A stretch of 64,000 nt of DNA, from IMG/VR virus record IMGVR_UViG_3300009514_000374, positions 32,001 to 96,000 of that record; one strand, 5' to 3'. Shown here piece by piece: positions 3 to 64,000 of the stretch. Made by a program: the position numbers and the translations under genes. The notes under the pieces were generated by a model that was not told where the DNA came from, ran no database searches, and saw only the letters and a list, made by a program, of their open reading frames with translations. The DNA is from a virus. Positions within the stretch are counted from its first letter, which is position 1, and each line of letters opens with the position of its first letter.

Positions 3-884
3 GGTTTCAACGCGCCGTGGCTCACGAAAAACAAGAACCCGCGAGGTCAAGCATGGGCCGGGGGCTCGTTCAAGACAGCGGTGCGTATCACCGTTGAGAT
101 CCCCAACAGCGACCCCAAGCTCAAGCACTGGCCTGAGCTTGCAGCCGAAAAGAACGTCTCGGACTCGTGGTTCCTGGCGCTCGACAAGGCGGGTGGCGGT
201 GGCTCGGACGACTGGTACATCTACATGGGCTCGATCCCCGTGAGCCGGATCAAAGAGGTCGAGGTCAACGGAAAGACGGTGAAGGTCGGGAAAGCGGTGG
301 GCTTCCATGGATGGAAGATGTCACCAGAGTCGATGCGCTTGCCCGGCCCACAATTCACCGACAAGAAACCGATCCCGGCCGAGGACATCGAGGAAGCCGT
401 TGAGTATCTGGACGAGGTAAAGCCCGGTGTGCTCGTCGGCTACAGTCGCGGCGGTGCCATCACCATGCTCGCGCTACGCAAGCACCGGGGCGCCAAACCC
501 AAGGTGATCTACGTGGCGCCGGCTTGGCTCCGAGGGTGGGCTCATGCTCAGCCACCGCACACCCAAGGCGTGATCCTCCACGGGGACAAGGACAAGCACG
601 TTCCCCTGGAGCACTCCTGTGAGCTTGCCAAGGACACGGGGATGCCGCTTCGCGTCGTGGAGGACAGGAACCACATCACGATCCTCAAGGACAAGCTCAA
701 CCCGAATGCAGGCAAGCCCGTGCCGCGCTCGATGTTGGACGACTGTGTGAACAAGTTGCCTGATTGGGGCACGAGCGGCGTGGGCACCCCTGAGCAGGTG
801 AAGCAGCAACAGGAATTCGCAGACCGCCTTGGGATGGCGGTCAAAGTAGCCGCCCGCTATCTCAACGGGGGCTCTCGCCGGTAG
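3..884 (+). CDS. 5'-truncated fusion: possible ADP-ribosyltransferase-like domain + alpha/beta hydrolase + C-terminal KVAARYL tag
   Basis: Frame is open from nt 3 (GFNAPWLTKN...). Nucleophile elbow GYSRGG, HGDKD Asp and a later His (RNH) fit an alpha/beta hydrolase. WLT...WYIYMGSIP in the N-terminal part resembles ART-like folds (weak). Confidence 0.7.
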   Translation, partial: GFNAPWLTKNKNPRGQAWAGGSFKTAVRITVEIPNSDPKLKHWPELAAEKNVSDSWFLALDKAGGGGSDDWYIYMGSIPVSRIKEVEVNGKTVKVGKAVGFHGWKMSPESMRLPGPQFTDKKPIPAEDIEEAVEYLDEVKPGVLVGYSRGGAITMLALRKHRGAKPKVIYVAPAWLRGWAHAQPPHTQGVILHGDKDKHVPLEHSCELAKDTGMPLRVVEDRNHITILKDKLNPNAGKPVPRSMLDDCVNKLPDWGTSGVGTPEQVKQQQEFADRLGMAVKVAARYLNGGSRR

Positions 885-939
885 GTACCGATTGGCGGGT
901 CGATGGCGATACTCCGAACCTTCCCCGTGAACGCGGAGC

Positions 940-1686: not shown

Positions 1687-2544
1687 GTGCCGATTGATTG
1701 GGATACTCAGCCCCTCGGGCAAATGACCGACGCTTCTTTGGCGGACAGGATTGGTGTGTCCTCTGGAGTGGTTCAGTACCAGCGCGCGAAACGCAAGATC
1801 CGACCTTTTCATCCGAATCGATCGATCAAAGGGATCCAATGGGACGACCAACCGCTAGGGCAGGTTAGCGATTCGGATCTTGCCCGCCAACTTGGAGTCG
1901 CCCCTGCCGTGGTGTGTAACGCCCGAAAAAGAAGAGGGATTGTAGCACTCACTCCCCGTTGTGCAGAGGTCGATTGGCGTACCCTTCCCCTCGGTGATTT
2001 TCCCGATCAAGCGATTGCGTCTTTGATCGGTGTGTCGCAGCCGACCGTCACCCGCCATCGTAATCGGCTTGGAATTGCTCCTTGTAAGCATCCGTTTCTG
2101 ACAAAAGAAGGGCGCGCTGCCAATTACCCCGAAGCCCTAATTGATCTGTACTGGCACGAGAGGAATATCGAGCACGAATTCCAGGTCCCGATCGGCCAGT
2201 ACATCGCTGATTGGGTTTTGGAAGGCAGACAAGTCGTAGAGTATGCTGGATTTTCGGCGAGCCCTCGATGGGGCAAGGCTTATCGGGCTCGTTTGCGTGA
2301 AAAGGTTGGCTTTTATACCTCAGAGGGGTGGGAGGTCCGTGTGATCTGGCCCCAAGATCTCAAAGAATACGATCTCGGTTTTCGACCCAAACCTTGTCGG
2401 GATCTGAGGTCCAATGGGGTTGTCTGGTCGGAGCAGCCTTTGGGGCAGATGCTTGACACCGCCCTGGCAAAACACCTTGGCGTGACTCAATCCACGGTTA
2501 CACGATGGCGGCAAAAGCTCGGCATCCCAAGATACCATGCGTAA
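1687..2544 (+). CDS. putative free-standing homing endonuclease: Vsr/DUF559-like nuclease with four HTH-like repeats
   Basis: Four W-x-x-x-PLG-x-x-x-D-x-x-(L/I)A-x-x-(L/I)GV repeats flank EFQVPIGQYIADW...VVEYAG...GWEVRVIW. Codon usage is more AT-rich than its neighbours. Confidence 0.6.
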   Translation: MPIDWDTQPLGQMTDASLADRIGVSSGVVQYQRAKRKIRPFHPNRSIKGIQWDDQPLGQVSDSDLARQLGVAPAVVCNARKRRGIVALTPRCAEVDWRTLPLGDFPDQAIASLIGVSQPTVTRHRNRLGIAPCKHPFLTKEGRAANYPEALIDLYWHERNIEHEFQVPIGQYIADWVLEGRQVVEYAGFSASPRWGKAYRARLREKVGFYTSEGWEVRVIWPQDLKEYDLGFRPKPCRDLRSNGVVWSEQPLGQMLDTALAKHLGVTQSTVTRWRQKLGIPRYHA

Positions 2545-3139
2545 AGCAGCTAAAGCCGATTTGGTGCCACAGAGGCAACCTTCCCAATTTTCGTGCATGA
2601 CAACATCCATGCAGATGTGTCTGCTCGCGCTCGGAATTCCTGCCGCAGAAGCGACGTATGAATTGGTCAACAAGGTCATGGGCGCCAAGCCGATGAATGG
2701 CGCGACGTGGGAGGATGCCGCCGCATGTGCTCAGCACTACGGGTGCCGTGCCACGTTGGTCGTACCCTCGACCATTCGTCAGATGAAGGAGTGGACTGAC
2801 GCCGGGACGCCCGTGATGATCGCGTGGAACCCCGAGGGCCGCGACTGGTCGCACGCCTCCGTCGTGTTCCACGTTGACGACGACCTCACCGTTCACGTCG
2901 CCGACCCGAATATCCCAGACCCCGACGAGACCGTGCGGGTCGTACCCAAAAGCGAATTCTATTCCAAGTGGTCCGAAAAATGGCCTCGCTACCTTGTGCG
3001 TCGCCCGGCGATGGCGATCGAGCGCGAGATCAGTGATGGCAAACAGGTCATGGCAAGCATGGCCCGTACCGCTTCGACCCGTTCCGTGGGGGCCACGATC
3101 GTAGCTGCCCGCTTCCGAGCCAGACAGGAGAAACCATGA
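2537..3139 (+). CDS. C39-like (papain-fold) cysteine peptidase with C-terminal IVAARF tag
   Basis: Q-x5-C (QPSQFSC), SHASVV His, VADP Asp. Confidence 0.75.
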   Translation: MRKAAKADLVPQRQPSQFSCMTTSMQMCLLALGIPAAEATYELVNKVMGAKPMNGATWEDAAACAQHYGCRATLVVPSTIRQMKEWTDAGTPVMIAWNPEGRDWSHASVVFHVDDDLTVHVADPNIPDPDETVRVVPKSEFYSKWSEKWPRYLVRRPAMAIEREISDGKQVMASMARTASTRSVGATIVAARFRARQEKP

Positions 3140-5139: not shown

Positions 5140-5454
5140 ATGTCCGACGCAAGTGCCAAACGAATCGCCGCTGCGTACCGGAGGACCAAACCCACCCCTC
5201 CGGGGTTTCGGCATGGGTACGTTGCTACGGTGACCGTCGAGCTATACGCTACCTCGGAAGCGCAAGCTCGGCGTCAACTAGATCGGTTTCTGGCCGGTGG
5301 CGACAAAACCGTGGCGCGGCATGTGATCGACACCCTTCACACGGGCTCGATCGGCGGTCGGAACCCCCCGGAGCCACGATGGACCCCTTCCGAGTGGGAG
5401 GGGTGGGATCCATGGGAGGGGTACGGCGACAAGCAGGCGGCCCCCGACGATTGA
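5140..5454 (+). CDS. hypothetical protein with N-terminal KRIAAAY tag
   Basis: ATG at 5140, 2 nt after the previous stop. Confidence 0.6.
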   Translation: MSDASAKRIAAAYRRTKPTPPGFRHGYVATVTVELYATSEAQARRQLDRFLAGGDKTVARHVIDTLHTGSIGGRNPPEPRWTPSEWEGWDPWEGYGDKQAAPDD

Positions 5455-7076: not shown

Positions 7077-8372
7077 ATGAGCGCCTACCTCACAAGCCTT
7101 TTTCGCCGGGCCTCCAAGACCCCTGTGACGGAGCCCTCCCACCTACGGGTGGCAGGACGCTACCTACGGGCCTATCTGAGCCCGAAAACAGACCTCTTGG
7201 CCCGCGTCCAGATGCTTGAGGGTGCGGCAGACGTGCCCCGAGGGGCTTGGACACGGCGGCTCGTACCGGCCGAGGCCAAGGACTATTTCGGGGAGGGCCT
7301 GGCCCCGGAGTGGACGCTTCGATCCGATTCAGGGCTCGCCAATGCAGCCGTCGAGGCAGTCAAAAAGAACATCGGTGAGCACGGCACTCCGGGTGTGATC
7401 CGATCCAAGCTCCGCGATATGTCGGCCGACGAGATGGTGAATTCGTTTATTGGGGGGTTGTGGCCTTGGCCCGCCCCCTCGTACTACGAGTGCCTCCAGT
7501 GTGGCAAGCGGTCCAAGAAGGACATTTCTAAGTGCCCCAAGTGCGGGGGAGAGGTTGAGCCGAGGGGTGCTGAGCACTCGATTATGAAGGCACCGCCCTT
7601 CTACGCCATCGGACAGAAGATGGACGAGCCGACCATCGAGGGTTTGCGTGACGGCTCGATCAAACCTGACCGCTTCACCCCCATTGTGTACTCGTGGGTG
7701 CAGCAACGTGCTCGTGACGAGCTACGCAAGTGGATGCGCGCTGTGGGCCGGGGCAGGGGACATGAGACTGAGTGGCTCCCCTCGGGAACCTCGCGCTTTG
7801 ACGTGATGGAAACCGACGCTGAACCCACCAGCGTTCTGTCTCGGATTCTCGGGATGAAGCACAACCCCAAGGCGAAGCGCCTGCGCAAGCTCTTGCGGGC
7901 CATCTCGGACGAGAACCCCCGCCGCGCCGATGCCGAGGTATTCAAGGAATTCCTGTCGATCATCGAGGGGATGTCGGCCGGGGAAACCTCCGTGGAATTC
8001 GGCCGGGTGGATGAACGCGGTATCCCGCGTGGGATTTCTGGAGTCATCGCCGAGCGCATGGGCAAGTCCCGGCAATTTGCTGGTCAGGCTCTCAAGCGGT
8101 CCTTTGAATTCTTGGCCGAGCGAGCCCAACGCAAACCGCAGCTAAAGCGTCTGTGGGAGGAAATCAGGGATGCCGAATTTGGAGCCGGGGAAATGGGTCG
8201 TTCCGCTTCGGCTACCGAGGAATTCCTGGCGGACCTCCAAGCATGTGGCGACGAGGTAATGGCTGCGTGCGACGCTGACGAGCACGAGGCTGATCGCACC
8301 GTCACTGTTGGACCTCTGGAGCTTACGATCGGGAAATTCCCCGGAGCGGGGTCGGGTGCCTACAGCAAGTAA
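7077..8372 (+). CDS. divergent sigma-factor-like protein with zinc ribbon and N-terminal RVAGRY tag
   Basis: CLQC...CPKC zinc ribbon; region-2-like FTPIVYSWVQQRARDELRK; HTH IAERMGKSRQFAGQALKR. Confidence 0.55.
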   Translation: MSAYLTSLFRRASKTPVTEPSHLRVAGRYLRAYLSPKTDLLARVQMLEGAADVPRGAWTRRLVPAEAKDYFGEGLAPEWTLRSDSGLANAAVEAVKKNIGEHGTPGVIRSKLRDMSADEMVNSFIGGLWPWPAPSYYECLQCGKRSKKDISKCPKCGGEVEPRGAEHSIMKAPPFYAIGQKMDEPTIEGLRDGSIKPDRFTPIVYSWVQQRARDELRKWMRAVGRGRGHETEWLPSGTSRFDVMETDAEPTSVLSRILGMKHNPKAKRLRKLLRAISDENPRRADAEVFKEFLSIIEGMSAGETSVEFGRVDERGIPRGISGVIAERMGKSRQFAGQALKRSFEFLAERAQRKPQLKRLWEEIRDAEFGAGEMGRSASATEEFLADLQACGDEVMAACDADEHEADRTVTVGPLELTIGKFPGAGSGAYSK

Positions 8373-8769
8373 ACCTTCGGCGCTTCGGGTTGCTCGGCTT
8401 TTCACAGCCCGTGCTGCCGAGGGCGACTGCTACGAGGCCGCCGCGAATTACATCGTGGAGCGCGGCCTTGGGCTATGGGGCGGCAAGGGCAAGCCCAAAT
8501 CAGGCTTGATTCTCGTCCATGGCGAGGTAGCGGGCCAAGGTCCGTTGGAGGGTGTCAATTTTGGGCACGCGTGGGTGCTCGACGGCAACACCGTGATCGA
8601 CAACTCCAATGGTCGGAACCTGCGGATGCCGAAATCCGCTTACTACGCGCTCGGCAAGATTGACGAGATCAACAATTTCCACGAGTACGATGTCGAGACG
8701 GCCCGACACATGCTGCTTCGGTTCAAGACCTACGGGCCGTGGGATCTGGAAACCTCGACAGGTCTGTGA
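8356..8769 (+). CDS. transglutaminase/papain-like Cys-His-Asp protein with RVARLF tag
   Basis: GDCYEAA, GHAWV, VID; GTG at 8356 with GGAG upstream. Confidence 0.65.
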   Translation: MPTASKPSALRVARLFTARAAEGDCYEAAANYIVERGLGLWGGKGKPKSGLILVHGEVAGQGPLEGVNFGHAWVLDGNTVIDNSNGRNLRMPKSAYYALGKIDEINNFHEYDVETARHMLLRFKTYGPWDLETSTGL

Positions 8770-9551
8770 TGCCGAAGATTCTTTTCACTGGACCCTCGCG
8801 TAAGCGGAAGCGGATCAAGCGGAAGCTGATCGAGGAAATGGAGCACCCGGAACTGCGGGTCGCGTCTCGATACCTCCAAGCGCGTGGGATGTACGACGAG
8901 GCGGAGCGGGAGCTTCGCAAGAAAGACCCGGATGGCTTCTGCATGGCGTTGCCGGGGACGGTCGTGTTTCAGCACTTGAATCTGAGCCCGCGCGGCAAGG
9001 TGATGAAGTGGTTTTCGATCCACGATCCCCCAACAGCCAGCGCCAAGGTCGTTGGGCACATCGCGGGGCTCGTGCAGACGAATGCCACGTTTGTCGTCGG
9101 GGAAGCCGGCTACAAGCAGGTGTCCGTGCTCGACAAGCCCAAGTTTGTGTTCGCCGGGGCGGTCGGAAAGCTCGTCGCCGTGGACGGTGCCGGCGGGGAT
9201 GAATTCGGAACCGTGCCCTCACGGGACCAGGAATGGATCCGATACAACCCCAAAAAGCGCGACGAAGGTCTGATCGCCCGATGGTTCTGCCGCCAGAATC
9301 CTGAGACTGGCGAATGGGACATCCCCGTGATCAAGGCACGTCGCGTGGTCGCACGAGGGCACAGGATCTACGCGAGCGGCATCACGGACATGCCCCGCAA
9401 ACACTACGAGCCGCTGCTTGAGCAGTTGGGGCTTGGCGCCTACCAGGCGGCCTCGATCAAACTGGCACACGAGGACAGCGAGCACGGGCCGCACATCCTC
9501 GCCATTCACCGAGAAGCCTTGCGTGCTCTCGATGGGGAACCAAACACATGA
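8769..9551 (+). CDS. hypothetical phage protein with RVASRY tag and degenerate IKLAH tag
   Basis: TGATG coupling; central domain with a YNP motif of phage-hypothetical type. Confidence 0.7.
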   Translation: MPKILFTGPSRKRKRIKRKLIEEMEHPELRVASRYLQARGMYDEAERELRKKDPDGFCMALPGTVVFQHLNLSPRGKVMKWFSIHDPPTASAKVVGHIAGLVQTNATFVVGEAGYKQVSVLDKPKFVFAGAVGKLVAVDGAGGDEFGTVPSRDQEWIRYNPKKRDEGLIARWFCRQNPETGEWDIPVIKARRVVARGHRIYASGITDMPRKHYEPLLEQLGLGAYQAASIKLAHEDSEHGPHILAIHREALRALDGEPNT

Positions 9552-10603: not shown

Positions 10604-12988
10604 GTGCCGACGATGCGAAAGATGGCCGCCCGTGTTGCGCGGCGGCACTTTCGCCGCGTAGCGGGCATCTTTGAGGCGCCTCCAAAGCTCGTCAAGGACG
10701 TAACCGAGCAGGTCACGCAGGTCTACGCGGAGCACATTTGGGCGAAGGCTGAGTATGAGATCCAAGAGCGCAACTCGGCCTATCATTGGGGTCAAAAACA
10801 GATCCGTGCGGCGATCAAGCAAGGGGAGGCCGAGGCGAAGGTCTTTTTGCAGGAAAACGACGCACAAGTGTTTATCGACGCCGGGTGGCACGAGATCGAT
10901 GAAAACAACGGCGAGTACACCACCCTTGCAGTGACCGCTGTCCCCATCGTTGAACGCGAGCAGAGTGGTCGCACAACGATCAAATGGGCTGCGGTTTGGG
11001 TGACGGGAAGGCGGACCTTCGGAGAACCTACGCCAGAAATCCCCGAGATGCCGGAGTACCCGAAGCTGCGGGACGAAGATTACGTTTACTACCCGTACCG
11101 AAGCGAGTATTCGACCGACGAAGAGTACGAACGAGCCCTTGCTGAACACCCCGGAAAAGTAAAAAGGTACGAGGAAAAGCAGAAGGCCCAAGAAGCGTGG
11201 CATGACCTCAAGGCACAGAACGATTGGGAATTCGAGCTTACGAGCTATGGCGGCTGGCAAGAGTTTGATACGCCAACTGCGGCCATCGTCGCGGCCAGGA
11301 ACAGTCCTATCAGGGGCGACAGCGAGGATTACAACACGGGCAGTCTGACTCAATCGGATATGTCGGCGGCAAAGGTCTTTGCGGAGATGGTCAAGGTAAC
11401 GCACGCGCGAGCACAGCGATACCTCAAGCGCGCTCGTGAGGCCATGAAGGACAAGCGAGCCGATGAAGCCTGGATGCAACGGATCGTGGATCTTAACCTC
11501 ACGATCAACGAGGCGAAAAAGTACGCCTCCATGCCCGATCGTAAATCTTGGACGATCGAACGCACGATCAAAGTAGACCTGACTGGTTGGAAATACGTCG
11601 ATGAAAAGCTCGGCGAATTGGAGAGCGAGTACGTCGAGGCTGCCGCGCACAACGAACGCGAATTGGAGGCGCTTGATCGTGACGTTCGTGCTCTGCGGGA
11701 AGATCAGATAACGAGAGTCTTTGAGTTCAAAAACGGGCCTCGCCGTAAACCGTGGAGGTTCCGAGTGGAGCGTGTATCGAAGGGCTACATGGAGGCTGAC
11801 AGGCGAAGGGGAGTTTACCTGATCTCGCACAACTACCACGGCTCTTGGACTACTGATGACTCCGCGACTCTTTCGCCCGAGAGGGTGCTCCGCGACATAC
11901 ACCGTGAGGTTCCAGCGCCCCTTTTGGACGAGGCCGCCAAACTACGCGAGTACAAACGTGGCAAGGTCTTGGCGGGGCAATCGATCAAGCTACGCATAGA
12001 CTTTGAAGGGCACCGCCGAGGTTGGGGAGGGTGGTGGAGCCCGCAGTCGAGGGAGATGAAGATCTTTTTCTATGACGAGAAGATCAAGCTCGACCCGGCC
12101 TCCTTCAAAGAAGCGATCTGGGAAATTCGGCGAATTTCTCGGCACGAGTCCCAACACGCTGGACAGACCATGCTCAATCATTGGCTTGAGCTTCACGTTT
12201 CCGGCTACAAGCCGGGTCTCCCGTCGCGTTCAACGTGGACCCCAAGCGTTGATCCGTGGGGGGCGGTTCGTCGTGAACGAGGAAAGCCAATCGTAGACCC
12301 GGAGACCGTTTACGAGGAATTCGGCAAAGACGAGGATTGGGAACAGGTCCACCATCACCACCGCGAGGTTGAGTTCTACACGAACCTTGCCGATGACATT
12401 GACAGGTTTGAGGCTACGCTGCGCAAAGTACCCAAGCCCTATTGGCCTGCTTATGCCCGCGTCGTTGTTGGCCTTGCTGAACCACAGCCCTTGAAGGATG
12501 AAATCGCCGAGCGTTACGGCTCCCAAAAATATCGTTTCCTGCAAGGCCCGACCACGGCTATGCCGGAGATGAACCGTGACTCGTTGGGCTGGCGCTTTCG
12601 CAGGTTCAAGCAAAAGAACAAGCCGAAATGGCGCAAGGCGGTCAAGGAATTCTACAACGAGCTTCGCAGGCGGGGGTATCGACTCCAAGGCGGCATCGTC
12701 CCCATGTCTCTCGACTACGTGAAGATCGAGGACGCGCTCAAAGAATGGCGTGATCGGTTCTATGACAAGACCGGCGTCTGGTATACGTGGCGTGACGTGC
12801 CCGGCGTGAATCTGCCCCCGAAAAAGCGTGTCGAGCAGGGGTGGATTTACGGGATGTTCGATGTGACCAATTTCGATCCTGACGAGTTGCACAGAGGCAA
12901 ACACGTCACACCTGACTCACCGAAGCCGGGGCGACAGCGGATCCGCGTCTTGGTTGGACCTACGGGCAAGGTCCAGAAGATCCGATAG
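10604..12988 (+). CDS. large protein with zincin-like HExxH metallopeptidase motif and N-terminal RVARRH tag
   Basis: RHESQHAGQ plus a downstream HREVEF candidate third ligand. Confidence 0.65.
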   Translation: MPTMRKMAARVARRHFRRVAGIFEAPPKLVKDVTEQVTQVYAEHIWAKAEYEIQERNSAYHWGQKQIRAAIKQGEAEAKVFLQENDAQVFIDAGWHEIDENNGEYTTLAVTAVPIVEREQSGRTTIKWAAVWVTGRRTFGEPTPEIPEMPEYPKLRDEDYVYYPYRSEYSTDEEYERALAEHPGKVKRYEEKQKAQEAWHDLKAQNDWEFELTSYGGWQEFDTPTAAIVAARNSPIRGDSEDYNTGSLTQSDMSAAKVFAEMVKVTHARAQRYLKRAREAMKDKRADEAWMQRIVDLNLTINEAKKYASMPDRKSWTIERTIKVDLTGWKYVDEKLGELESEYVEAAAHNERELEALDRDVRALREDQITRVFEFKNGPRRKPWRFRVERVSKGYMEADRRRGVYLISHNYHGSWTTDDSATLSPERVLRDIHREVPAPLLDEAAKLREYKRGKVLAGQSIKLRIDFEGHRRGWGGWWSPQSREMKIFFYDEKIKLDPASFKEAIWEIRRISRHESQHAGQTMLNHWLELHVSGYKPGLPSRSTWTPSVDPWGAVRRERGKPIVDPETVYEEFGKDEDWEQVHHHHREVEFYTNLADDIDRFEATLRKVPKPYWPAYARVVVGLAEPQPLKDEIAERYGSQKYRFLQGPTTAMPEMNRDSLGWRFRRFKQKNKPKWRKAVKEFYNELRRRGYRLQGGIVPMSLDYVKIEDALKEWRDRFYDKTGVWYTWRDVPGVNLPPKKRVEQGWIYGMFDVTNFDPDELHRGKHVTPDSPKPGRQRIRVLVGPTGKVQKIR

Positions 12989-21447: not shown

Positions 21448-21463
21448 GCGGTAGGGTAGTCGC

Positions 21464-22140: not shown

Positions 22141-22146
22141 AAGCTA

Positions 22147-22174
22147 AGCGTAGGTCGTGCGTCGAGCGCGTCAA
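22147..22174 (-). promoter_or_regulatory. sigma70-type promoter
   Basis: TTGACG-N16-TACGCT, 6 nt before ATG 22140. Confidence 0.55.
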
Positions 22175-22176
22175 CC

Positions 22177-27942: not shown

Positions 27943-27963
27943 CCCCTCTCGGTGGGAGGGGTC

Positions 27964-41950: not shown

Positions 41951-42259
41951 ATGCCGTCGAAGCCCTCAGAACGCCGCGTGATCATGGCGAAAAAGGTTGC
42001 CGCCGATTGGCTGGCTAACAACGCCTCGGCCGAATACCGTTTCCGTGTCTACCACAACGCGGACGCGGGGGTATTCGTGAACCTGCTTCGGGGCTTCCGT
42101 GACAACCGGGTAAAGCTCGCGGGCGTAGATCCGATTCCTGACCTTGGGCTCAAGAACGAGGTCAGTGGCTTCACCATTTGGTCGTCGGACTGGTCGGCAC
42201 TCCAATCACTCAAGACCTTCTTGGAAAAGAGGGGCATGGATACGTCGTGGATTTGGTGA
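41951..42259 (+). CDS. hypothetical protein with KKVAADW tag
   Basis: First ORF of the late operon. Confidence 0.65.
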   Translation: MPSKPSERRVIMAKKVAADWLANNASAEYRFRVYHNADAGVFVNLLRGFRDNRVKLAGVDPIPDLGLKNEVSGFTIWSSDWSALQSLKTFLEKRGMDTSWIW

Positions 42260-54987: not shown

Positions 54988-56980
54988 GAAACGCCAAAAG
55001 CGGCGTCGAAAGACCGCTCCACGGCGCTATATCGCCGGATCGGGGGACATCCCCAAGAACGAGGACGCCCAAACGGTTGCCAGCGTGCCGGACAAGCATA
55101 AGCGGCCTCAGTTGTCGGTTGGCAAGCCGCAGCCGATCGTCCTTGGGTCGATGCGATCCAAGGTGGCGAATATCGGCGCAGGCGGATCGGGTTTCGGGGG
55201 CGGTGGGATCGGAGGACCCGGATCGGGTAACACGGGTGCTTTCGGATCCGGGCTTGGTTCGGTTGGCGGCTCGGCGATCGGAAGCGGCGGGAATTTCTAC
55301 TCGCCCGAGCTTTCGACCGATTTCCTTGAGCTACCGCAGAGCCTAGACGAGCAGCGTAACTACTTTCGGTTTTTCTACCGCGCTGACCCGTTCGTCGGGC
55401 AGGCGATGGACATTCACCGCGAGCTTCCGCTGTCGAAGATCCGGCTTGGTCGCCCCGAGGCCAAGGACAAGGATCTTGCTCAGCAGTCGCTCGATTTCTG
55501 CAAGCGGTGGACGAAGATCGTTGGGCTGCTCCAACGGCTGTCGGAAGGGCTGCACGAGTACAACGTCATTGGCGAAACGCACTGGTTCATCGAGGACGAC
55601 AACCCCGATATGCCGGAGGACGTTCGATACGAGATCAAGAACATTCTCCACGAGGATGGCAACTTGGAGGAGACCAAGGAGCTTTGGCCGGACGCGGACG
55701 AGCGCGCCTCCGCGTGGATGAAAAAGAACTACAAGGGGTGGACGCAGGTTCGCATCCTTCCGCCTGAGCAGATTCACATGGACTCGTTCCCGATGTCGGA
55801 CGAGATCCTGGTATCGCTCATTCCCGACTCCAAGACTAAGAGTGTGATCGAGCAGGCCGACCAGGGTGACCAGCGTGCGGTCAAGGTCATGGAGTCGATG
55901 CCGCCTGACATCGTGATGGCGGTGCGGCACGGCGAGAACGTCCCGCTCAATACGGACCCAGACGCAGGGTCGTTCTACTACTACATGGCGAACAAGGTGA
56001 GCCAGTACGAGCCGCGAGGGCACTCTCGGCTTGAACGGTGTATCCGTACCCTCGTCTACAAGGACAAGCTGCGCCAGGCGCAGACCTCCATCTCGTCGCG
56101 GCACATGACGCCTATCCGGCTCGTGTACGCCGAGAACATGAACGAAGCGGACACCGAGGCGCTGCGTGATCAGATCGACCTCGCGCTCCAAGACCCCGAC
56201 TACTCGATCGTCACCAACTTTCAGGTGACGTGGGAGGAAATGACGCCGCAAGGGCGTCTGCTGGAGCTTTCGTCCGAGTACGACCTGATCAACCGGGAGC
56301 TTTATGCGGGTCTTGGAGTGACAGAGAGCCTGCTCTCAGGTGAGTCGAGCTACAGCGGCGATCGGATCAACCTGGAGGTGATCAACGTCCGCTACATGCT
56401 CGTCCGTGAGTTCCTACAGGATTTCGTGGAGAAGAACCTGTTTGAGCCGATGTGTCGGCGCATGGGGTTCATCGAGACGGACGATTGGGGCAACGATGTC
56501 GTCGTTTGCCCGAAGCTCTCGTTCACGAGGCTGGCCCTCCGCGACAACCAGGACGTGTACGACGCCCTGTTCAACCTCTACCAGAAGGGCTCGTTGCCGA
56601 TTAGCGTGATCTACGACCTGCTCAACGTGGATGGGGAGGGTGCGACCGAGGAATTGCAACGCGATTTCGCCACGTTCAAGGACCCCACCTACAACGAGGT
56701 ACTGCGTGGCCTGTACTCGCAGGCGGGGACCAAGCTCGGCGACCAGTCGAATTTCGTGGAGAAGCAGGCCGAATACCTCGGACTGGACTACAAAGAGGAA
56801 GCCGAGGGGATGCAGCGGTTCGGATCGCAACAGGCGCCCTCGCAGCCCCAAGGTCAGCCCGCCGGGATGGACGTGTTGGCTTCTCTCGTGGCTGAGCGGA
56901 TCGCCGGCCAGGTCGCCGATTTGGTCGCCGACAAGATCGTGGAAAAGCTACAAAAGCGGTCTCCTGAGAGCACCGAGTAG
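54980..56980 (+). CDS. portal protein
   Basis: FY..DP.V..A.D, RG.S.L, LYAGLGV...L.G...YS, size and position after terL. Confidence 0.8.
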   Translation: MAKKRQKRRRKTAPRRYIAGSGDIPKNEDAQTVASVPDKHKRPQLSVGKPQPIVLGSMRSKVANIGAGGSGFGGGGIGGPGSGNTGAFGSGLGSVGGSAIGSGGNFYSPELSTDFLELPQSLDEQRNYFRFFYRADPFVGQAMDIHRELPLSKIRLGRPEAKDKDLAQQSLDFCKRWTKIVGLLQRLSEGLHEYNVIGETHWFIEDDNPDMPEDVRYEIKNILHEDGNLEETKELWPDADERASAWMKKNYKGWTQVRILPPEQIHMDSFPMSDEILVSLIPDSKTKSVIEQADQGDQRAVKVMESMPPDIVMAVRHGENVPLNTDPDAGSFYYYMANKVSQYEPRGHSRLERCIRTLVYKDKLRQAQTSISSRHMTPIRLVYAENMNEADTEALRDQIDLALQDPDYSIVTNFQVTWEEMTPQGRLLELSSEYDLINRELYAGLGVTESLLSGESSYSGDRINLEVINVRYMLVREFLQDFVEKNLFEPMCRRMGFIETDDWGNDVVVCPKLSFTRLALRDNQDVYDALFNLYQKGSLPISVIYDLLNVDGEGATEELQRDFATFKDPTYNEVLRGLYSQAGTKLGDQSNFVEKQAEYLGLDYKEEAEGMQRFGSQQAPSQPQGQPAGMDVLASLVAERIAGQVADLVADKIVEKLQKRSPESTE

Positions 56981-56996: not shown

Positions 56997-57008
56997 TATT
57001 CGGGCTAT
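56997..57008 (+). promoter_or_regulatory. candidate late promoter TA-N6-CTAT
   Basis: TATTCGGGCTAT 22 nt before ATG 57031. Confidence 0.5.
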
Positions 57009-57030
57009 GGGCGTGCCTCTAGCGAAGGCT

Positions 57031-60000
57031 ATGGCCCACAAGCCCACAAAGGCGCGGACAGCGTACACCGTCGAACCCACTGAGGGTGGCGTTGTGATCT
57101 GGCCCGAGAATCGGATCGAGCAGGCGTTTATCGACACGTTTGCCGCTCGGGTTGCGGGTCAGAGGCTTGGCGTGGCGAAGGGTCACAATATCGACCTGTC
57201 CGAAGATCCAATTCACCCGGACGAGGACGACGAGGACGAGTGGAAGGTGGACGAGGAACCGATGTCCATGGGGCATTCGGAGCTTCCCGGCGCCGAGGGC
57301 CGGACGGCGCGGGACTGGACCGCGCCAGGCAGAATCCTCGGCTTTAAGATCCGGTACGACGCCGAAAATGTAATGAGCCACCATCCCATCGTGATGGCCT
57401 TCGACGGGGAGACGGAGATTGGTTTCGTTGAGTTGGTCATGCTCGATGACCCTCCCTCTCATTGCGAGGACGAGTGGACTGAGGTTAGGGACGAGTTGGA
57501 ACGACGGGGTGCCCTTGGTGTCTACACCTACGCGGTAGTGGAGTCCTGGCTGGCGGACGAGTATCACCACAACCGTATCGGGGTGGGGATGTACGAGGCG
57601 GCGATGGCTGCTCTGTCAGACCCCCAGGAGCCAGTCATCCTGGTTGCGAGTCGGTGCAGAGGCGGCCCTACGAGCCATCAAGCGAGTCGTGTGTGGGAGT
57701 CCATGGCGCGTCGCTACGTGTCCTCGGGACAGGTTGTTTCGTCCGTTCCCAAGGCCAAAGCTCGGGTGGCGAATGTGGCTCGCCGCTTCATGGCGAAGGC
57801 GACGGGCACCCGTGCCGGCGACGGCTCCAGCGTGGGGTTGTTCATCCGCCTGCCGAAGCACCTGGCGACGCAATTCCCTGGCCTCGGAGAGAACGACTCG
57901 TCTCCAAGCCACGTCACGTTTCTCTACATCGGGGATTTCAAGGACAAGGACGAGCAGGCCCGGTTGGTCGTCACTCTGCGCGACATCCTTCGACGCTGGT
58001 GGCCCAAGTGTAAGGCAAGCCTCGGTGACCTGGAGTATTTCGACCACCCCGACAAGAACCGCCGCGTCCCGCATGTGTCCGTCGATTTCGACAAGGATCT
58101 GTCGGGGTTCAAGCAGCGGGTCATGCAGGAGCTTCGGGACGAGGGCTTTGAGGTCGGTGACAAGTTCCCCGAGTTCAAGCCACACGTCACGCTCGCGTAC
58201 ATGCCAGGCATGGACGGGGAGTGGGACAAGCCCGTGCCAGAAGGCTCGTGGGATGTCACTGAGATGGAGATATGGGGGATGCCCCGCGTACACACGATTC
58301 CAATTGGCAAAGCGTCGAGTCAACGAGTGGCTTCTTTGTGGCTTGAGGGGAGCACCCACGCGAAATCGGTTGCTTTGATGCGGTTCCTGTCCCGATTGGC
58401 TCAGCGTCTCGGGGTTGCCCGTCACACCTACGTCGTTGGCGGGGCCATTCGGAATTTCCTGATCGAGCAACCGATCAAGGACATCGACGTAGTGATCGAC
58501 TCGGTTGCTGCGGGCAAGGATTCCGAGTGGTTTGCCGAGCAGGTTGCGCGTGCCATTCCGGCGCCAACAAACCTGACGACGAACCAGTACGGCGTTGCCA
58601 TCCTGACCGTGAAGGGGGATTGGGATCTGGACGGCGAAAGCCTCAAGGGCGAGGTGATCGAAATCGCCAACGCTCGCAAGGAGAGCTACGGCGGTGCGGA
58701 GGGTAAGGGCTACAAACCACACATGGTTGAGCCGACAACCATTGACGAGGATGTCTACCGGCGCGAATTCACGTTCAACTGCATGGGAGGGGATACTCTG
58801 ATTCCCACCAAGCGGGGTATCCTTCGCATTGATGAGATCGCGTCTCGTGAGAACGGGGACCGGCAAGATATTCATTTGACAGTGGCGGGACAGGACGGTC
58901 CTTCGGAGGCTGTGGGATGGCAGTACAGCGGGTACGCGCCGACTCTGCGGGTGACCTCCGAGTGGGGACACACCTTCACCTGCACCCACCACCACCCCGT
59001 TCTGGTTCTGCGGGGGCATGACCATGAGTGGGTTCAGGCAGATCAGCTTGCAGAGGGCGACCTGCTTTGCGTGCCCGTGCGGCAGGTGTCGAGGCGAGAC
59101 CCTCTCGCTTTGGATTTGCCTGACCCGGTGCAGCCCAAGAGGGGCAGGCTCAAGGGTGCTCGGAAGCCTGAGATAATGACGCCGGAGTTGGCGTTTTTGA
59201 TCGGGTGTGTGGTGGCAGAGGGTTCCAACACCCACAAGCGGGTGTCTTTCAGTAACTCCGACCCCAATCTCATTTCCCGCTACGCCGAGTGCTTCCACGC
59301 CACTTTTGGATTTCTCCCCTCCCGTAATAAGGTGGTGAGCAAAGGCTCTGTCCGTGTCCTACGGGGGGTGGAATTTGTCGCCAACCATGACGGCTACGAC
59401 ATTTACGCCGACAGTAAAGCAGTGGTGGGCTGGTTGGAAGACCTCGGCTTGTACTGCGGAGGCTCCAAGGACGGGAAATCCGCTTCCCATCACAAGGTTG
59501 TTCCGTGGTCGATCCTACAAGCGGACGCGCGTAGCCAGTGGGCGTTTCTTGCGGCTTATCTTGAAGGGGACGGATCTATCCGGCCGGATACCGGGCGCAT
59601 CACATACTGTTCGGCCTCCCCGAAAGTGCGTCAACAGTTGCAGGTGCTCCTGGGAGCGCACGGCATCTTGAGCAAGGTGAAGGATAGGTTTGTCTACCTT
59701 AGCGCCGTGGATTCGGCTCTCTTGTGGGAGAAGGTTCGCCCGTGGATGGTTACCAAGGGGTTCGACTACACGCGAGACAGCAAGTCCCGTAACCGTTACG
59801 GAATTCCCGCAGATCACATCCGGGGGTTTCTTGCGGGCCGTAAACAAGCTCGTTCCGTGTACGCCACGGACGAGGGCGGGCTCCGGTCCCTTCCAGACGC
59901 TCACGAGCCTGTCCGTAAGGTTCAGCGGCTTCTACACGACGCCTACGCTCGGGGAGATTTCGACGGGCTCCTGTCGAGTCTCAAGATCATTAGCGGAGAC

Positions 60001-60888
60001 GAACACGCCAAGCTACAGCGGTTGTTTGACCTGGGCTACCAGTATGTCGAGGTTGCGTCAGTTGAAGATGCTGGAGATCAGGACGTATTCGACATTTCGA
60101 TGGGTGAGGGGGTAGAGCCCGCTTTTGTGGCGAACGGTGTGGTGGTTCACAACACGCTCATGTGGCGGTTGCTGGACCTGACCCACGGACCCGAGAAGGC
60201 CGAGGTAATCGACCTGACCGGCTGTGGTCGCCGGGATCTGGAGCAGGGCGTTCTCAAATGCCCGCGTGACCCCGACATCGTGTTCGCGGACGACGCGACT
60301 CGTATCCTTCGGGCGATCAAATTCACCGGCAAGTACGGATTCAAGATCCCGCCTGACCTGGCCGCCGCGATCAAGCGCAACGCTCCGAAGATGAAGCAGA
60401 TGCCCTACGAGGCGTTGAAAGACATCCTCGTGGATAACATCTTGCCCGAGCCGACCGCTCGCAAATCGCTCCAGCAGATGAAGGATCTCGGCATCCTCGA
60501 TGTGCTGCACGACATGATTCAGGAGCAGAAGCCGTTTGCTTCGGCCATCGCCAAGGTGCTCGGTCGGGAGCGTCGGGTTCAGGTTCTACTCGACTGGCTG
60601 CATCTTGGCCTGCCCGCCAAGACCCCGCTGCATTTCCTTGGGGCGCATGAGCGAGTCCGAGTCCGCGAGATCACGGTTCCGATGGACGAGGACAAGGCGA
60701 CTGATTGGATGCACCGGCTGATCAAGCCTCCGGTCAACAATAACGAGGTCATCGAAGCTCACTCGCTCGTTGGGCGGGACCGCGCGATGATCATGCCGCT
60801 TGCTCGCAAGCTGATTCTCGTAGACCCCGACCTCGCCTACGACGGCCGCGCCCTGACGCGCGAGGTGATTGAAAGGTGGGTGCGGTGA
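57031..60888 (+). CDS. polyprotein: GNAT-like + 2H phosphoesterase + CCA/poly(A)-type nucleotidyltransferase (intein-containing)
   Basis: GNAT-like ~57330-57745; HVTF/HVTL 2H motifs ~57830-58305; VGGAIRN, DID, EIA, RREFTFN|TL, DDATRILRA; alternative start 57007. Confidence 0.85.
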   Translation: MAHKPTKARTAYTVEPTEGGVVIWPENRIEQAFIDTFAARVAGQRLGVAKGHNIDLSEDPIHPDEDDEDEWKVDEEPMSMGHSELPGAEGRTARDWTAPGRILGFKIRYDAENVMSHHPIVMAFDGETEIGFVELVMLDDPPSHCEDEWTEVRDELERRGALGVYTYAVVESWLADEYHHNRIGVGMYEAAMAALSDPQEPVILVASRCRGGPTSHQASRVWESMARRYVSSGQVVSSVPKAKARVANVARRFMAKATGTRAGDGSSVGLFIRLPKHLATQFPGLGENDSSPSHVTFLYIGDFKDKDEQARLVVTLRDILRRWWPKCKASLGDLEYFDHPDKNRRVPHVSVDFDKDLSGFKQRVMQELRDEGFEVGDKFPEFKPHVTLAYMPGMDGEWDKPVPEGSWDVTEMEIWGMPRVHTIPIGKASSQRVASLWLEGSTHAKSVALMRFLSRLAQRLGVARHTYVVGGAIRNFLIEQPIKDIDVVIDSVAAGKDSEWFAEQVARAIPAPTNLTTNQYGVAILTVKGDWDLDGESLKGEVIEIANARKESYGGAEGKGYKPHMVEPTTIDEDVYRREFTFNCMGGDTLIPTKRGILRIDEIASRENGDRQDIHLTVAGQDGPSEAVGWQYSGYAPTLRVTSEWGHTFTCTHHHPVLVLRGHDHEWVQADQLAEGDLLCVPVRQVSRRDPLALDLPDPVQPKRGRLKGARKPEIMTPELAFLIGCVVAEGSNTHKRVSFSNSDPNLISRYAECFHATFGFLPSRNKVVSKGSVRVLRGVEFVANHDGYDIYADSKAVVGWLEDLGLYCGGSKDGKSASHHKVVPWSILQADARSQWAFLAAYLEGDGSIRPDTGRITYCSASPKVRQQLQVLLGAHGILSKVKDRFVYLSAVDSALLWEKVRPWMVTKGFDYTRDSKSRNRYGIPADHIRGFLAGRKQARSVYATDEGGLRSLPDAHEPVRKVQRLLHDAYARGDFDGLLSSLKIISGDEHAKLQRLFDLGYQYVEVASVEDAGDQDVFDISMGEGVEPAFVANGVVVHNTLMWRLLDLTHGPEKAEVIDLTGCGRRDLEQGVLKCPRDPDIVFADDATRILRAIKFTGKYGFKIPPDLAAAIKRNAPKMKQMPYEALKDILVDNILPEPTARKSLQQMKDLGILDVLHDMIQEQKPFASAIAKVLGRERRVQVLLDWLHLGLPAKTPLHFLGAHERVRVREITVPMDEDKATDWMHRLIKPPVNNNEVIEAHSLVGRDRAMIMPLARKLILVDPDLAYDGRALTREVIERWVR
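58780..60153 (+). mobile_element. 458-aa intein with LAGLIDADG homing endonuclease
   Basis: Starts CMGGDT; block B TCTHHHP; LIGCVVAEG and FLAAYLEGDG; block F VFDI; ends VVHN followed by Thr(+1). Confidence 0.92.
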
Positions 60889-61970
60889 AGCCATCGGCAA
60901 ACCGCGTCGCGTCGCTCCACCGCGCTGGCTATTTCAGCGTCGGCGACCTGATCTTGTTTGGAAAGTACAAGAACAAGAAGGGCAAGATCGTCGGGTTTGG
61001 CCGCACGGAAAAGAACGTGCCTACGGTCATTGTCGAACCCATCCCCAAGGGCCGCAAAAAGAACAAGGAGATCGGCCTGTTCAAGATCTGGCATGGCGTG
61101 CCTGAGAAGCGTGCGATGACGATGGAGGCTCGTGTAGCTCACCGCTATGCTTTTGAGCACCCAAGCGAGAAGGCTCGCCAGCAGTACCTCAAAGATCACC
61201 CCGGAGCCGATCCTAAGAAGCACCATGTCAAGGGGCCGTCGAAGCCGAGCAAGGTCAAGAGTCTCGTAGATCGGGCGCTCGCCAAGGTGAAGGGCGCGAA
61301 GGACCACATGGTCGCTGCGGTTCGTGCGGCCCCGGCCGAGGTTCACTCGTTCCTGTTCGACAAGGCCCATCGGAACAAGCGGACCAAGGAGCTTGCCGCG
61401 AAGCTCAAGGAGAACGCACCCAAGGCTAAGAAGGCTCTGTTCAGCGCCCTCAAGCGCGAGCTTTCGTCGTTCCCGAAAGCGGGGGCCATCCTCAAGCGGG
61501 TCGCAACGGGAGGCAAGCTCCAAAAGGGCGATGTCAAGACCCTCTATGGTGTCGGCGTCTACATCGCGGGCACTGTTCTTGGCGCGATGTCGGGAGGGGC
61601 TGCGGGCGCGGCTTTGTTTGGGGCCTCCAAGGCGCTCCTGCACAGCCTCAGTTTGCACGCTTCGATCAAGGCAGTCAGCCATCTCGCCGACGAGGGGTTC
61701 CTTGGCTACGAGGCGGTGGAGAGTGGCGCGATGGCGACGGGCCTGGCCGATGCGTTGCCGGTGAACACGAGTGACCTGCCTGGCTTGGGCAAGGTGTTTG
61801 ACGTGCTCAAAGAGGTGGTCACAGCAGCCGACGAGAAGGACGACGAATACCTGCGCAAGTTTGTTGAGGCCATGTACGACGACATTGTGAAGCAACTGGA
61901 GCAGGGCATCAGCGACGCTGACATTCGGGACGTTCTCGTTCACGGGGTTCAGCCAAAGGGGGCCGCATGA
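60885..61970 (+). CDS. tagged multidomain protein (SH3/KOW-like + hydrophobic Gly/Ala segment)
   Basis: RVASLH and RVAHRY tags; VGD.ILFGKYKNKKGKI; GVGVYIAGTVLGAMSGGAAGAALFG. Confidence 0.7.
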   Translation: MKPSANRVASLHRAGYFSVGDLILFGKYKNKKGKIVGFGRTEKNVPTVIVEPIPKGRKKNKEIGLFKIWHGVPEKRAMTMEARVAHRYAFEHPSEKARQQYLKDHPGADPKKHHVKGPSKPSKVKSLVDRALAKVKGAKDHMVAAVRAAPAEVHSFLFDKAHRNKRTKELAAKLKENAPKAKKALFSALKRELSSFPKAGAILKRVATGGKLQKGDVKTLYGVGVYIAGTVLGAMSGGAAGAALFGASKALLHSLSLHASIKAVSHLADEGFLGYEAVESGAMATGLADALPVNTSDLPGLGKVFDVLKEVVTAADEKDDEYLRKFVEAMYDDIVKQLEQGISDADIRDVLVHGVQPKGAA

Positions 61971-64000
61971 GCGCAGCACGCATCGCCGCCCTTCACATGG
62001 CGAAGGCCAGGTACAAGGACAAAAAGGTCGTCAAGGACTCGGACGGGAAGGATATGACCGTGTACGAGTACAGTGACCGCCAGGTTTCCAAGCGGAACAA
62101 CGACAAGGCCGATCGTGTGCAGAAGCTCCGGTCCCTTCGATCCGATCTCGTGAAGCGGGTCAAGAAGGACTACAAGGCCAAGGATCTCAAGACGCGGCTC
62201 ACGGCGTTGGCCGTGGGTTTGATCGACCATACCTACGAGCGTGTTGGCAACGACGAGAGTGCGGGCGAAGGCCACTTTGGCGTGACCGGCTGGCTCGTCA
62301 AGCATGTCTCGTTCTCGGGCGGCAAGGCGACGATCCGGTACGTCGGTAAGAGTGCAGTCAAGCAGACCAAGGTCGTGACTGATCCGGGGGCGGTCAAGCT
62401 GCTCAAAGAAGCGGTCAAGGGCAAGAGCCCCGGCGATCAGATCTTCACCTGCGACGACGCGGGCGAGAAGGTGTGCGTGACCTCGGCCGAGGTCAATGCC
62501 TACCTGCCGGAAGGGATCACGGCAAAGGATCTACGAGGGCTTCACGCGAACGAGGAAATGCTCGTCAAGCTCAAGGCGCAGCGTAAGGGTCCGCTCCCGA
62601 GTGACAAGAAAAAGCGCGAAAAGAAGCTCAAGGACGAATTCAAGCGGGCGCTGGAGGAAACGGCCAAGGTGGTCGGCCACGAGCCGAGCACGCTCCGTAG
62701 CCAGTACCTCGTCCCTGCGATGGAGGACGCCTACATGAAGGACGGCACGGTGATCGACAAGCTCAACGAAAAACGCTCGTCGCTGGAGGCCGCGTGGGAT
62801 CACTTGGCGACCAAGACGGACGAGGAAAAGAAGGACGAGGACGCTGATAAGAACGTCCGCAAGGACCCGAAAAAGAAGCCTCCGCGCTACGACCTCCGTG
62901 ACAACAAGATTCACGATCCTGATCTCAATGGGGATCCCGACATGAAGGACGAGGCCAAGGCCGACAAGGACCCTGATCTCTCCCTCAACTACAAGCGAGT
63001 TGCGCGACGGTTCTTTGCGCGCAAGACCTCACCTACGGAATCCGGCGCCAAGGCGCTGTGGGAGCGGCACAAGCAAAAGAGCCCCGGCACCAAGCTCAAT
63101 TGGCAGGATTTCTTTGAGCGCAAGGACAAGGGCACCATCCAAGAGGTTCGGGACGCGATCAAGCCCAAGGACAAGCCCAAAGACGAGCCCGCGAAGCCCA
63201 AGAAGCCCAAGGCCCCGGAGGACGAGGGCGAGGCTAAGGAGAAGCCCGAGGACGAGGACAAGGCCAAGAAGAAGCCCGCCGAAGGCGAGGCGCCCACTGA
63301 GGATCCGCAGGCTGAGCAAGCCGCCAAGGAGAAGGAGCACAAGGAGCGTGTTCAGAGTGCCGTGACCGATTCGGCGCAGGCATACGACTCCGTGTTCGGC
63401 GGAGGCCGTGTCCAGGTTCCCCGCGAGGTAAGCCGATACCTTCCCCAAGCCCTCTCCAACATGACGCCGGAGCAGGTCGAGAGTTTCAACCAGGCCACGC
63501 AACAGCGCGCTCAGGCGATGCAGAACGAGGGTTTGCGTGGTGAAAATGTGGTCGAACGGGCTGAACGGACGCTGGATGACTACAGCGACGAGCAGATCGA
63601 GAACATCTCTGATCCAGCACGGCTGGCACAGGTAGTTGCTGATCTTACGTTCTCCGAGCACGTCCTGTCCCTCGACAAGAAGCGGCAAAAAGGCGTGAAG
63701 CGGGCGCTTAGCAAAGCGTTCGACCAGATCGAGAAGCAGTTGCAAAAGGAAACCAAGGACGGGCGGTACCGCCTGCCTTCGGAAATTCGACGCACGATCT
63801 CAGACCAGATGGGGAGCTTGGAGCCCGATCAGATCCAACAGTTCGTCCAGGGCGTGACGGAAAACCTGGCGGACAATGCGACCAAGTACGACGACAGCGA
63901 TGAATCTGTCGAGCGCGCCCAAGGTGATCTTGAGGAATTCTCCGAGCTAATCGAGGGAGTTTCGGATCCGAATGTGATGGCGCAAGAGGTCGCTTCGCAG
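61967..64000 (+). CDS. topoisomerase IB catalytic domain fused to a long C-terminal region (3'-truncated; missing from the ORF track)
   Basis: ATG 61967, open to the window end; RVGN, GK, KDLR, GH, catalytic Tyr (SQYL, codon 62705-62707). Confidence 0.85.
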   Translation, partial: MSAARIAALHMAKARYKDKKVVKDSDGKDMTVYEYSDRQVSKRNNDKADRVQKLRSLRSDLVKRVKKDYKAKDLKTRLTALAVGLIDHTYERVGNDESAGEGHFGVTGWLVKHVSFSGGKATIRYVGKSAVKQTKVVTDPGAVKLLKEAVKGKSPGDQIFTCDDAGEKVCVTSAEVNAYLPEGITAKDLRGLHANEEMLVKLKAQRKGPLPSDKKKREKKLKDEFKRALEETAKVVGHEPSTLRSQYLVPAMEDAYMKDGTVIDKLNEKRSSLEAAWDHLATKTDEEKKDEDADKNVRKDPKKKPPRYDLRDNKIHDPDLNGDPDMKDEAKADKDPDLSLNYKRVARRFFARKTSPTESGAKALWERHKQKSPGTKLNWQDFFERKDKGTIQEVRDAIKPKDKPKDEPAKPKKPKAPEDEGEAKEKPEDEDKAKKKPAEGEAPTEDPQAEQAAKEKEHKERVQSAVTDSAQAYDSVFGGGRVQVPREVSRYLPQALSNMTPEQVESFNQATQQRAQAMQNEGLRGENVVERAERTLDDYSDEQIENISDPARLAQVVADLTFSEHVLSLDKKRQKGVKRALSKAFDQIEKQLQKETKDGRYRLPSEIRRTISDQMGSLEPDQIQQFVQGVTENLADNATKYDDSDESVERAQGDLEEFSELIEGVSDPNVMAQEVASQ

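Follow-up and report, generated by a model that had tools for sequence, protein, structure and literature searches.

A short basic helix at the ends and domain joints of unrelated enzymes in a huge-phage contig: a putative capsid-targeting-like address peptide

Short peptides that send unrelated proteins to one destination are known both from cellular compartments and from virions. The cargo-loading peptides of encapsulins are short terminal peptides on unrelated enzymes, located at the C-terminus, that bind the inner face of a shell with the HK97 fold, and the encapsulation peptides of microcompartments are amphipathic helices that occur at either end of a protein or between its domains. The capsid targeting sequence of phage T4, found on IPIII and its relatives, occurs only at the N-terminus and is cleaved off at an L/I-x-E site. 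The DarB protein of phage P1 has an N-terminal packaging signal of 30 residues and is encoded beside the portal and protease genes, and the Dar proteins have no consensus in common (PMC9024508). Polyvalent proteins, whose genes are often found next to portal genes, are predicted to be packed into phage heads and injected (Iyer, Burroughs, Anand, de Souza, Aravind 2017, PMC5512222); domains and architectures are the subject of that paper, and the parts of it retrieved by a term search include no shared peptide between modules or at termini. Here, we analyze a 64,000-nucleotide stretch of viral DNA (hereinafter, the window; bases 32001-96000 of the 141,007-bp contig of IMG/VR record IMGVR_UViG_3300009514_000374, 60.7% GC) with respect to a short basic motif, typically RVAxR followed by an aromatic residue. 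About 20 unrelated enzymes of this phage and its relatives carry this common helix at an end or at a domain joint.

The finding resembles capsid-targeting-like address peptides, with a putative function. As in the case of the T4 capsid targeting sequence and P1 DarB, a short terminal peptide would direct a set of unrelated, enzyme-like proteins to the same place, the carriers are, like the T4 internal proteins and DarB, anti-defence or takeover enzymes, and the motif-rich polyproteins adjoin the portal and protease genes, as DarB does. Unlike the T4 and P1 signals, one consensus helix occurs at N-termini, C-termini and joints; no conserved Glu-containing or other motif follows it, and in orthologs of the ADP-ribosyltransferase (ART) carrier discussed below the enzyme body starts ∼14 residues on, with no conserved residue in the linker. 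The domains found are those of the polyvalent proteins, namely ART-PolyVal, 2H, a papain-like peptidase, GNAT and a ParB-like nuclease that stays below threshold (PF08857, 22.3 bits against a cut-off of 23.6 bits), and multi-domain open reading frames (ORFs) likewise lie beside the portal and terminase genes, although here the modules often are separate genes, each individually tagged. The shell of encapsulins has the HK97 fold, as does the phage capsid protein here; however, the sequences of the encapsulin and microcompartment peptides, including the encapsulin consensus, are unlike the motif, these are cellular compartments rather than virions, and the likeness is an analogy. A literature search for the tag strings found nothing in a relevant context.

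The core of the motif is R-V-A-x-[R/L]-[Y/F/H/W]-[L/M]-A, usually with P-S-A or A-S-A-S as lead-in, and the full consensus, S-A-x-R-V-A-x-[RL]-aromatic-[LM]-A, corresponds to a basic element of 8-12 residues. A preliminary description of the window had listed ∼15 copies of a short basic helix, a characterization that is upheld here, and all 15 listed peptide strings were found where it had placed them, in the frames of genes on the + strand, which holds nearly all genes of the contig. A search of the 160 contig proteins (45,218 aa) with a strict regular expression, [RK][VI]A.[RL][YFHW], yielded 16 matches, compared with 0.86 ± 0.93 in 2000 residue shuffles (maximum of 5) and a single match for the reversed motif in the same proteins, so that the motif exceeds chance despite the Arg/Ala-rich proteome. 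Broken down by reading frame, there are 14 strict matches in the coding frame and 3, 0, 1, 0 and 1 in the five others. To avoid circularity, a weight matrix was built exclusively from 95 instances in other phages; it detected 17 sites on the contig with a score of at least 12 (0.38 expected) and 24 with a score of at least 8 (2.2 expected). Under this independent matrix, 11 of the 15 listed copies score at least 12 and 14 score at least 8, the weaker among them still above background (10.3 for the copy listed at 3092 and 8.1-8.6 for those listed at 834, 41984 and 61122); the one that drops out is AARVAGQRL (57142..57168, + strand), which lacks an aromatic residue at +5 and has a score of less than 4; its membership is not supported. 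The replication-gene control that had been proposed together with the list gave the expected contrast: in a negative set of replication and structural proteins (ribonucleotide reductase, helicase, clamp loader, terminase, portal, protease, scaffold-like protein and major capsid protein (MCP); 4,698 aa), there are no matches and the best score is 4.8.

The conservation extends beyond the positions that define the search pattern. In relatives, L/M is found at +6 in 24 of 38 instances, A at +7 in 18 of 38, and S/A is preferred at -3 and -2. The Arg, Val and Ala residues of the copies are each spelled by four different codons, with synonymous variation at every conserved position; such free codon use indicates selection on the peptide, and a DNA- or RNA-level element near gene starts was ruled out on this basis. 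The motif is short and Arg/Ala-rich and comes from a genome with 61% GC, as could be expected of an artefact of chance or composition in a GC-rich, Arg/Ala-rich proteome. The shuffles, the reversed motif, the other reading frames and the occurrence of the motif in a relative with 42% GC (four copies in 7,559 aa) rule out composition; together with the synonymous variation, the conserved flanks outside the regular expression and the orthologs that hold the motif at the same place, they render any such artefact, or a DNA-level element near gene starts, extremely improbable. Thus, the motif is very probably a selected, shared and functional peptide.

The closest public record is that of an uncultured 485-kb phage, LR745208.1 (portal identity of 64%), with Tunturiibacter phage Tunturi_5 and Bacillus phage G as distant relatives, and 27 related loci were identified in IMG/VR, on contigs up to 618 kb; the contig thus represents part of a huge-phage genome. 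Across these 27 portal-related loci, the coding strand contains 64 forward and eight reversed matches, compared with five and eight, respectively, on the other strand. Whole-genome counts are well above expectation, with 12 matches against 2.4 in LR745208.1, 27 against 1.45 in the related contig G003 and six against 1.9 in G002, and the RVAxR-aromatic motif is present in all four genomes of the clade that were counted. The LR745208.1 ortholog of the ART-PolyVal carrier retains the motif at its N-terminus. For Tunturi_5 and phage G, the 50 kb that surround the head genes contain no copy of the motif.

The placement of the copies at protein ends and domain joints, as noted in the preliminary description, withstands scrutiny. 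When the longest ORFs are considered, 12 of the 16 strict matches are within 40 aa of an end, compared with 28% expected (binomial P = 1.3e-4). When likely start codons are used instead, the N-terminal copies begin 3-10 residues past the Met (e.g. M-K-P-S-A-K-RIAARW), and those at the C-terminus start 11-15 residues ahead of the stop codon. Of 19 copies, 12 lie at the N-terminus, three at the C-terminus and four inside the protein, all four of the latter lying outside Pfam domain envelopes, between domains. If the motif is drawn on a helix, V1, A2, the aromatic residue at 5 and L6 would form one hydrophobic face, with R0 and R4 as an adjacent basic ridge. In the AlphaFold2 model of the ART carrier, made with a multiple sequence alignment, the tag is a separate helix (residues 4-15, pLDDT ∼65) on a coil of ∼10 residues, and the enzyme body has a pLDDT of at least 90; a model of another carrier, g92876, made without an alignment (pLDDT 44), was uninformative.

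The copies in the window are all on the + strand, and the scores given here are those under the independent matrix. At or near N-termini are RIAAAYRR (5161..5184, score 12.0), 7 aa past the ATG at 5140; RVAGRYLR (7146..7169, 20.9) in a DUF7129 protein identified with Pfam (7077-8372); RVARLFTA (8386..8409, 21.7), 10 aa past a GTG start at 8356 with GGAG upstream; RVASRYLQ (8856..8879, 20.9) in the N-terminal region of a protein that Pfam relates to mycobacteriophage L5 gp82 (8739-9551); RVARRHFR (10631..10654, 17.8), 3-9 aa from the start of a 794-aa protein (10604-12988); the degenerate KVAADWLA (41993..42016, 8.3, borderline) in a 102-aa protein; RVASLHRA (60903..60926, 14.5), 6-9 aa from the start of a 364-aa protein (60876-61970), with an orthologous copy in the related locus L004; and RIAALHMA (61979..62002, 20.4), 4 aa from the start of a 1322-aa topoisomerase IB-like protein with a Topoisom_I match, which runs from 61967 past the window end. 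Two copies start 13 aa before a stop codon: KVAARYLN (843..866; a strict match with a borderline score of 8.1) in an alpha/beta hydrolase with hydrolase domain matches (3-884, the ORF ending at 884), and the degenerate IVAARFRA (3098..3121, 10.3) in a C39-like papain-fold peptidase (2537-3139; PF13529, Peptidase_C39_2). The internal copies include two in the 1293-aa post-portal polyprotein g89007 (57007-60888), which carries a 2H phosphoesterase (PF13563) and an intein-bearing CCA/poly(A) nucleotidyltransferase: NVARRFMA (57772..57795, 13.2) precedes the 2H domain by 44 aa, and RVASLWLE (58324..58347, 22.0) separates the 2H domain (aa 299-400) from the nucleotidyltransferase head (aa 474-593), the LR745208.1 ortholog having a copy at the same junction, right after the 2H domain. 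The other two are RVAHRYAF (61131..61154; a strict match, 8.6), directly before an EHPxxxARxxYLxxHPxADP module, and RVARRFFA (62996..63019, 16.1), ∼100 aa past the topoisomerase IB core (aa 42-245) and followed by a K/P/E-rich linker. The nucleotidyltransferase of the polyprotein is split by the intein, which has a LAGLIDADG endonuclease domain (aa 606-1049).

Beyond the window, copies were found at contig positions 3057, 12166, 114927, 119024, 120001, 136165, 136223 and 138431. The carriers there include the ART-PolyVal protein g12148 (contig 12148-12918; PF18760, also detected in the LR745208.1 ortholog and in a polyprotein of G003) and a GNAT-like protein (contig 136211-138466) whose C-terminal copy is strong and whose N-terminal copy is weaker; the overall density of carriers is ∼14 proteins per 141 kb. 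The motif is most frequent in three ORFs located between the portal gene (window 54980-56980) and the genes of the prohead protease, an acidic 430-aa scaffold-like protein and the MCP, which are located past the window end. The polyprotein g89007, directly after the portal, combines the 2H and nucleotidyltransferase modules in one ORF, and many other carriers are single-domain genes. In relatives, the post-portal ORFs encompass 1,600-2,800 aa, with two to four copies each; G003 has a 1,519-aa ORF with five copies, and the next ORF begins M-I-K-P-S-A-S-RVASRY. The 102-aa carrier of KVAADWLA heads a gap-free string of genes to the terminase (window 52344-54380), portal and protease; from window position 41951 to the scaffold-like gene, no intergenic gap exceeds 35 bp. 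The window also encodes ribonucleotide reductase, a Dda/ExoV-like helicase and a clamp loader.

The ART carrier provides a view of the same position across many phages. A search with this protein returned 120 proteins, 119 of which are orthologs with ∼50% identity, many from contigs of 100-650 kb. The tag is located ∼30 residues before the catalytic LYHGT and comes in three types: type A, RVAxR-aromatic, in 44 orthologs by strict match, mostly 5-8 residues from the Met, and in ∼11 in degenerate form; type C, [A]YSYDRR(VA), in 25 of the 119; and type B, a sequence denoted IRLAH, in four to five; three orthologs have no extension. On a quick, unrooted tree built from the ART bodies alone, type A requires 23 changes, compared with 35.7 after shuffling, and type C requires nine compared with 23. 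The tag classes form clusters on this tree, yet have been switched repeatedly. One database call of the ART carrier, P0001 (214 aa), starts 42 codons late and has lost the tag, its orthologs aligning over the full 256 aa; with the tag cut off at least one carrier by automatic gene calling, such tags are easily missed.

The YSYDRR tag is not confined to the ART. In two contigs with a YSYDRR-type ART (G001 and G002; loci L046/L047, L055, L056 and L058), a back-translated pattern gave three forward matches each, with none on the reverse strand and none in controls. Apart from the ART, these matches fall in an unrelated 131-aa protein that begins M-A-YSYDRR and in a protein that ends YDYDRR-stop; they came from a scan of whole contigs, and a test of the neighbourhood within 10 kb on either side found nothing. 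Each tag type is thus reused on unrelated proteins of its own phage. The DNA patterns hinted that types A and C could be strictly exclusive between phages; this was ruled out by six A-type copies in the YSYDRR phage G002, all of them 8-79 residues from a start. Five A-type contigs (2.07 Mb in total) do not contain the YSYDRR pattern. Given the A-type copies in G002 and this absence, RVAxR-aromatic is the clade-wide tag, with IRLAH and YSYDRR as additional, lineage-restricted ones.

IRLAH itself is a 25-aa tag, sLRxxLIRLAHxxPELRxxLLPLL, with 15 copies at the ends and joints of nine otherwise unrelated proteins (window 9548-10600, at both ends; 42700-43446, two copies; 48898-49227, at the N-terminus; 51099-51647, in the C-terminal part; and, beyond the window, contig 26542-31900 and 115626-115997). 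It is far better conserved than the short motif, which the preliminary description had suggested might be its minimal version. This relationship is not supported: under the motif matrix, the 15 IRLAH copies all have background-like scores of -3 to -18, compared with more than +21 for true sites, the P-E-L-R...L-L-P-L-L part is absent from all 19 motif sites, and just R-[VL]-A is common to the two sequences. The module mentioned above, EHPxxxARxxYLxxHPxADPxxH(T)V (window 9548-9900 and 61150-61230; contig 29350-29700), has no family match and lies behind tags in three proteins, namely g41548, g28184 (with two occurrences) and g92876; the tag in front is IRLAH in the first two proteins and RVAHRY in the last. 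Because this shared module and the ART orthologs take either tag at the same place, the two sequences are positional equivalents rather than long and short forms of one helix. IRLAH and YSYDRR are alike with the motif in taking the same positions on homologous bodies, in their presence at ends and joints of unrelated proteins, in being net basic and in containing R-[VL]-A; they differ from it in sequence and in being lineage-restricted, whereas RVAxR-aromatic is found throughout the genomes counted.

The simplest reading of these observations is a docking helix for one common partner. We consider it the likeliest explanation, although short of an even chance, that the motif is a portable docking or address helix that loads cargo into the assembling head, by analogy with the known packaging signals. 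The phage would place the helix at the N-terminus, the C-terminus or the joints of many unrelated effector-like enzymes; all tagged enzymes would bind one common partner, which would most likely be a component of the assembling head, such as the inner surface of the MCP, the acidic scaffold-like protein or the portal; and the tagged enzymes would be packed into the capsid and delivered together with the DNA, a route that is predicted for polyvalent proteins and established for the T4 internal proteins and P1 DarB. We infer both that the helix binds a partner and that the partner is in the head; the head is favoured because of the portal and protease gene context, the polyvalent repertoire and the precedents of the T4 capsid targeting sequence and P1 DarB. 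More tentatively, the clade might use interchangeable, partly lineage-specific address helices (RVAxR-aromatic, IRLAH and YSYDRR) to load dozens of effectors into the head.

Several observations weigh against head loading. The prohead protease and the scaffold-like protein are bound to enter the procapsid, yet lack the motif, and a search for it on the protease, scaffold-like protein, portal and MCP, as would be expected of an encapsidation signal, found none. Many carriers are encoded far from the head module (at contig 3, 12, 32-45, 115-120 and 136-138 kb), simple targeting needs no multiple internal copies per polyprotein, and, unlike the T4 capsid targeting sequence, the N-terminal copies are not followed by a conserved protease cut site. 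Neither the motif nor an ART ortholog was found in cultured phages, and the carriers are known from sequence alone. Across phages with different extra tags, the MCP is equally identical (85-95% in five contigs), and the differences in the portal (49% vs 59-64%) and the scaffold-like protein (32-35% vs 41-54%) track overall distance. Being so similar in all five contigs, the MCP cannot explain the extra tags, yet it stays a candidate partner for the universally conserved A-type tag. A near-match in the MCP, LRVARVYM, was considered as a clue to mimicry and ruled out, the aligned partial MCP paralogs not keeping R-V-A.

The main rival to head loading is a processing mark: the prohead protease g98501 or the C39-like peptidase would use the motif as a recognition site or exosite and cut polyproteins into modules; the copies at the ends of separate modules would then be the same sites after gene fission, a scenario that is compatible with head loading. 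The polyproteins contain about one copy per module (five in the 1,519-aa ORF of G003 and two to four in the post-portal ORFs), gene borders here match internal copies in relatives, the C39-like peptidase itself bears a degenerate copy, and small residues are conserved just upstream of the helix, K-P-S-A here and A-S-A-S in G003. The A-S pair resembles assemblin-type cut sites. Among the architectures described for polyvalent proteins, moreover, peptidases proposed to process these proteins are often included (PMC5512222). However, P-S and A-S are also ordinary helix N-caps, and the small residues vary by lineage whereas the helix does not; what is conserved has the form of two to three turns of amphipathic helix, and not of an extended site with fixed P1/P1' residues, and cleavage at copies 3-10 aa from the start or 11-15 aa from the stop would free only tiny peptides. 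On this evidence, a processing mark appears unlikely.

The evidence for a shared docking helix applies equally to a hub outside the virion, either on the host side, with RNA polymerase, the ribosome, a chaperone or the membrane as examples, or as a component of a phage factory, where the tagged enzymes would be concentrated at one site in the infected cell. The spread of the carriers over the genome, rather than in the head module only, and the encapsidated protease and scaffold-like protein that lack the tag are in line with such a hub; on the other hand, the motif is kept at 42-67% GC, in probably different hosts, which argues against a host-specific target, all relatives examined have their highest motif density next to the portal and protease, the domains are of the kinds found in delivered effectors, and there is neither a hydrophobic stretch for membrane insertion nor a fit to a twin-arginine (Tat) signal. 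The probability of this explanation seems to us as low as that of processing. The Tat signal, an N-terminal S/T-R-R-x-F-L-K with a hydrophobic stretch and an A-x-A site after it, had been considered as a candidate in its own right and was rejected: the motif has R-R-F-L without the spacer residue, no hydrophobic stretch follows, and copies are also C-terminal or internal. It is less probable still that the motif is a self-associating or nucleic-acid-binding arginine-rich helix that gathers the carriers into one body or onto phage DNA with no dedicated receptor. Its net basic, amphipathic character, the multivalency that several copies confer on a polyprotein and the very acidic proteins or tails that could act as counter-ions (g99977, g20793 and the C-terminus of g119971) are compatible with this explanation, but the invariant V-A and the fixed aromatic residue, with the x3 position and the flanks free to vary, point to a shaped pocket rather than to charge alone, and YSYDRR, a tag of quite different character, replaces the motif on orthologs.

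If the motif is indeed a head-loading address, proteins injected with the DNA by uncultured huge phages could be listed from sequence only. For the phage studied here, the list would then contain a topoisomerase, peptidases and a tRNA-repair enzyme, along with ADP-ribosyltransferases and a 2H phosphoesterase of a type that breaks down nucleotides used in defence signalling. The idea of polyvalent proteins would then extend to separately encoded, individually tagged modules, and the tags could be used to load foreign proteins. The three tag types swapped on one conserved enzyme amount to a natural experiment for finding the receptor by co-variation.

Some additional features of the contig and its relatives concern the head genes and their surroundings. 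The MCP (contig 102138-103010) is 85-95% identical to its counterparts in G001-G005, although the portals are only 49-64% identical, an unusually strong conservation for a shell protein. The 618-kb contig G004 contains extra short ORFs (241858-242061, 486371-486595 and 494826-494963) that resemble MCP residues ∼155-227 and are partial MCP paralogs. In G005 (89818-91407), the portal match is interrupted by one in-frame TAG, which could reflect recoding, an interruption or an assembly error. Directly 3' of the MCP gene, contig 103119-105611 is an 830-aa ORF with HNH-like, LAGLIDADG and DNA methylase matches that may combine a methyltransferase gene with a fused or inserted mobile endonuclease. 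Long Asp/Glu/Gly-rich runs are found in the scaffold-like protein encoded after the protease (contig 99977-101269), at 20793-23567 and at the C-termini of the products of 119971-120192 and 69067-69552, and one of these Asp/Glu/Gly-rich proteins, 73 aa in length, consists of a tag and an acidic tail and nothing more.

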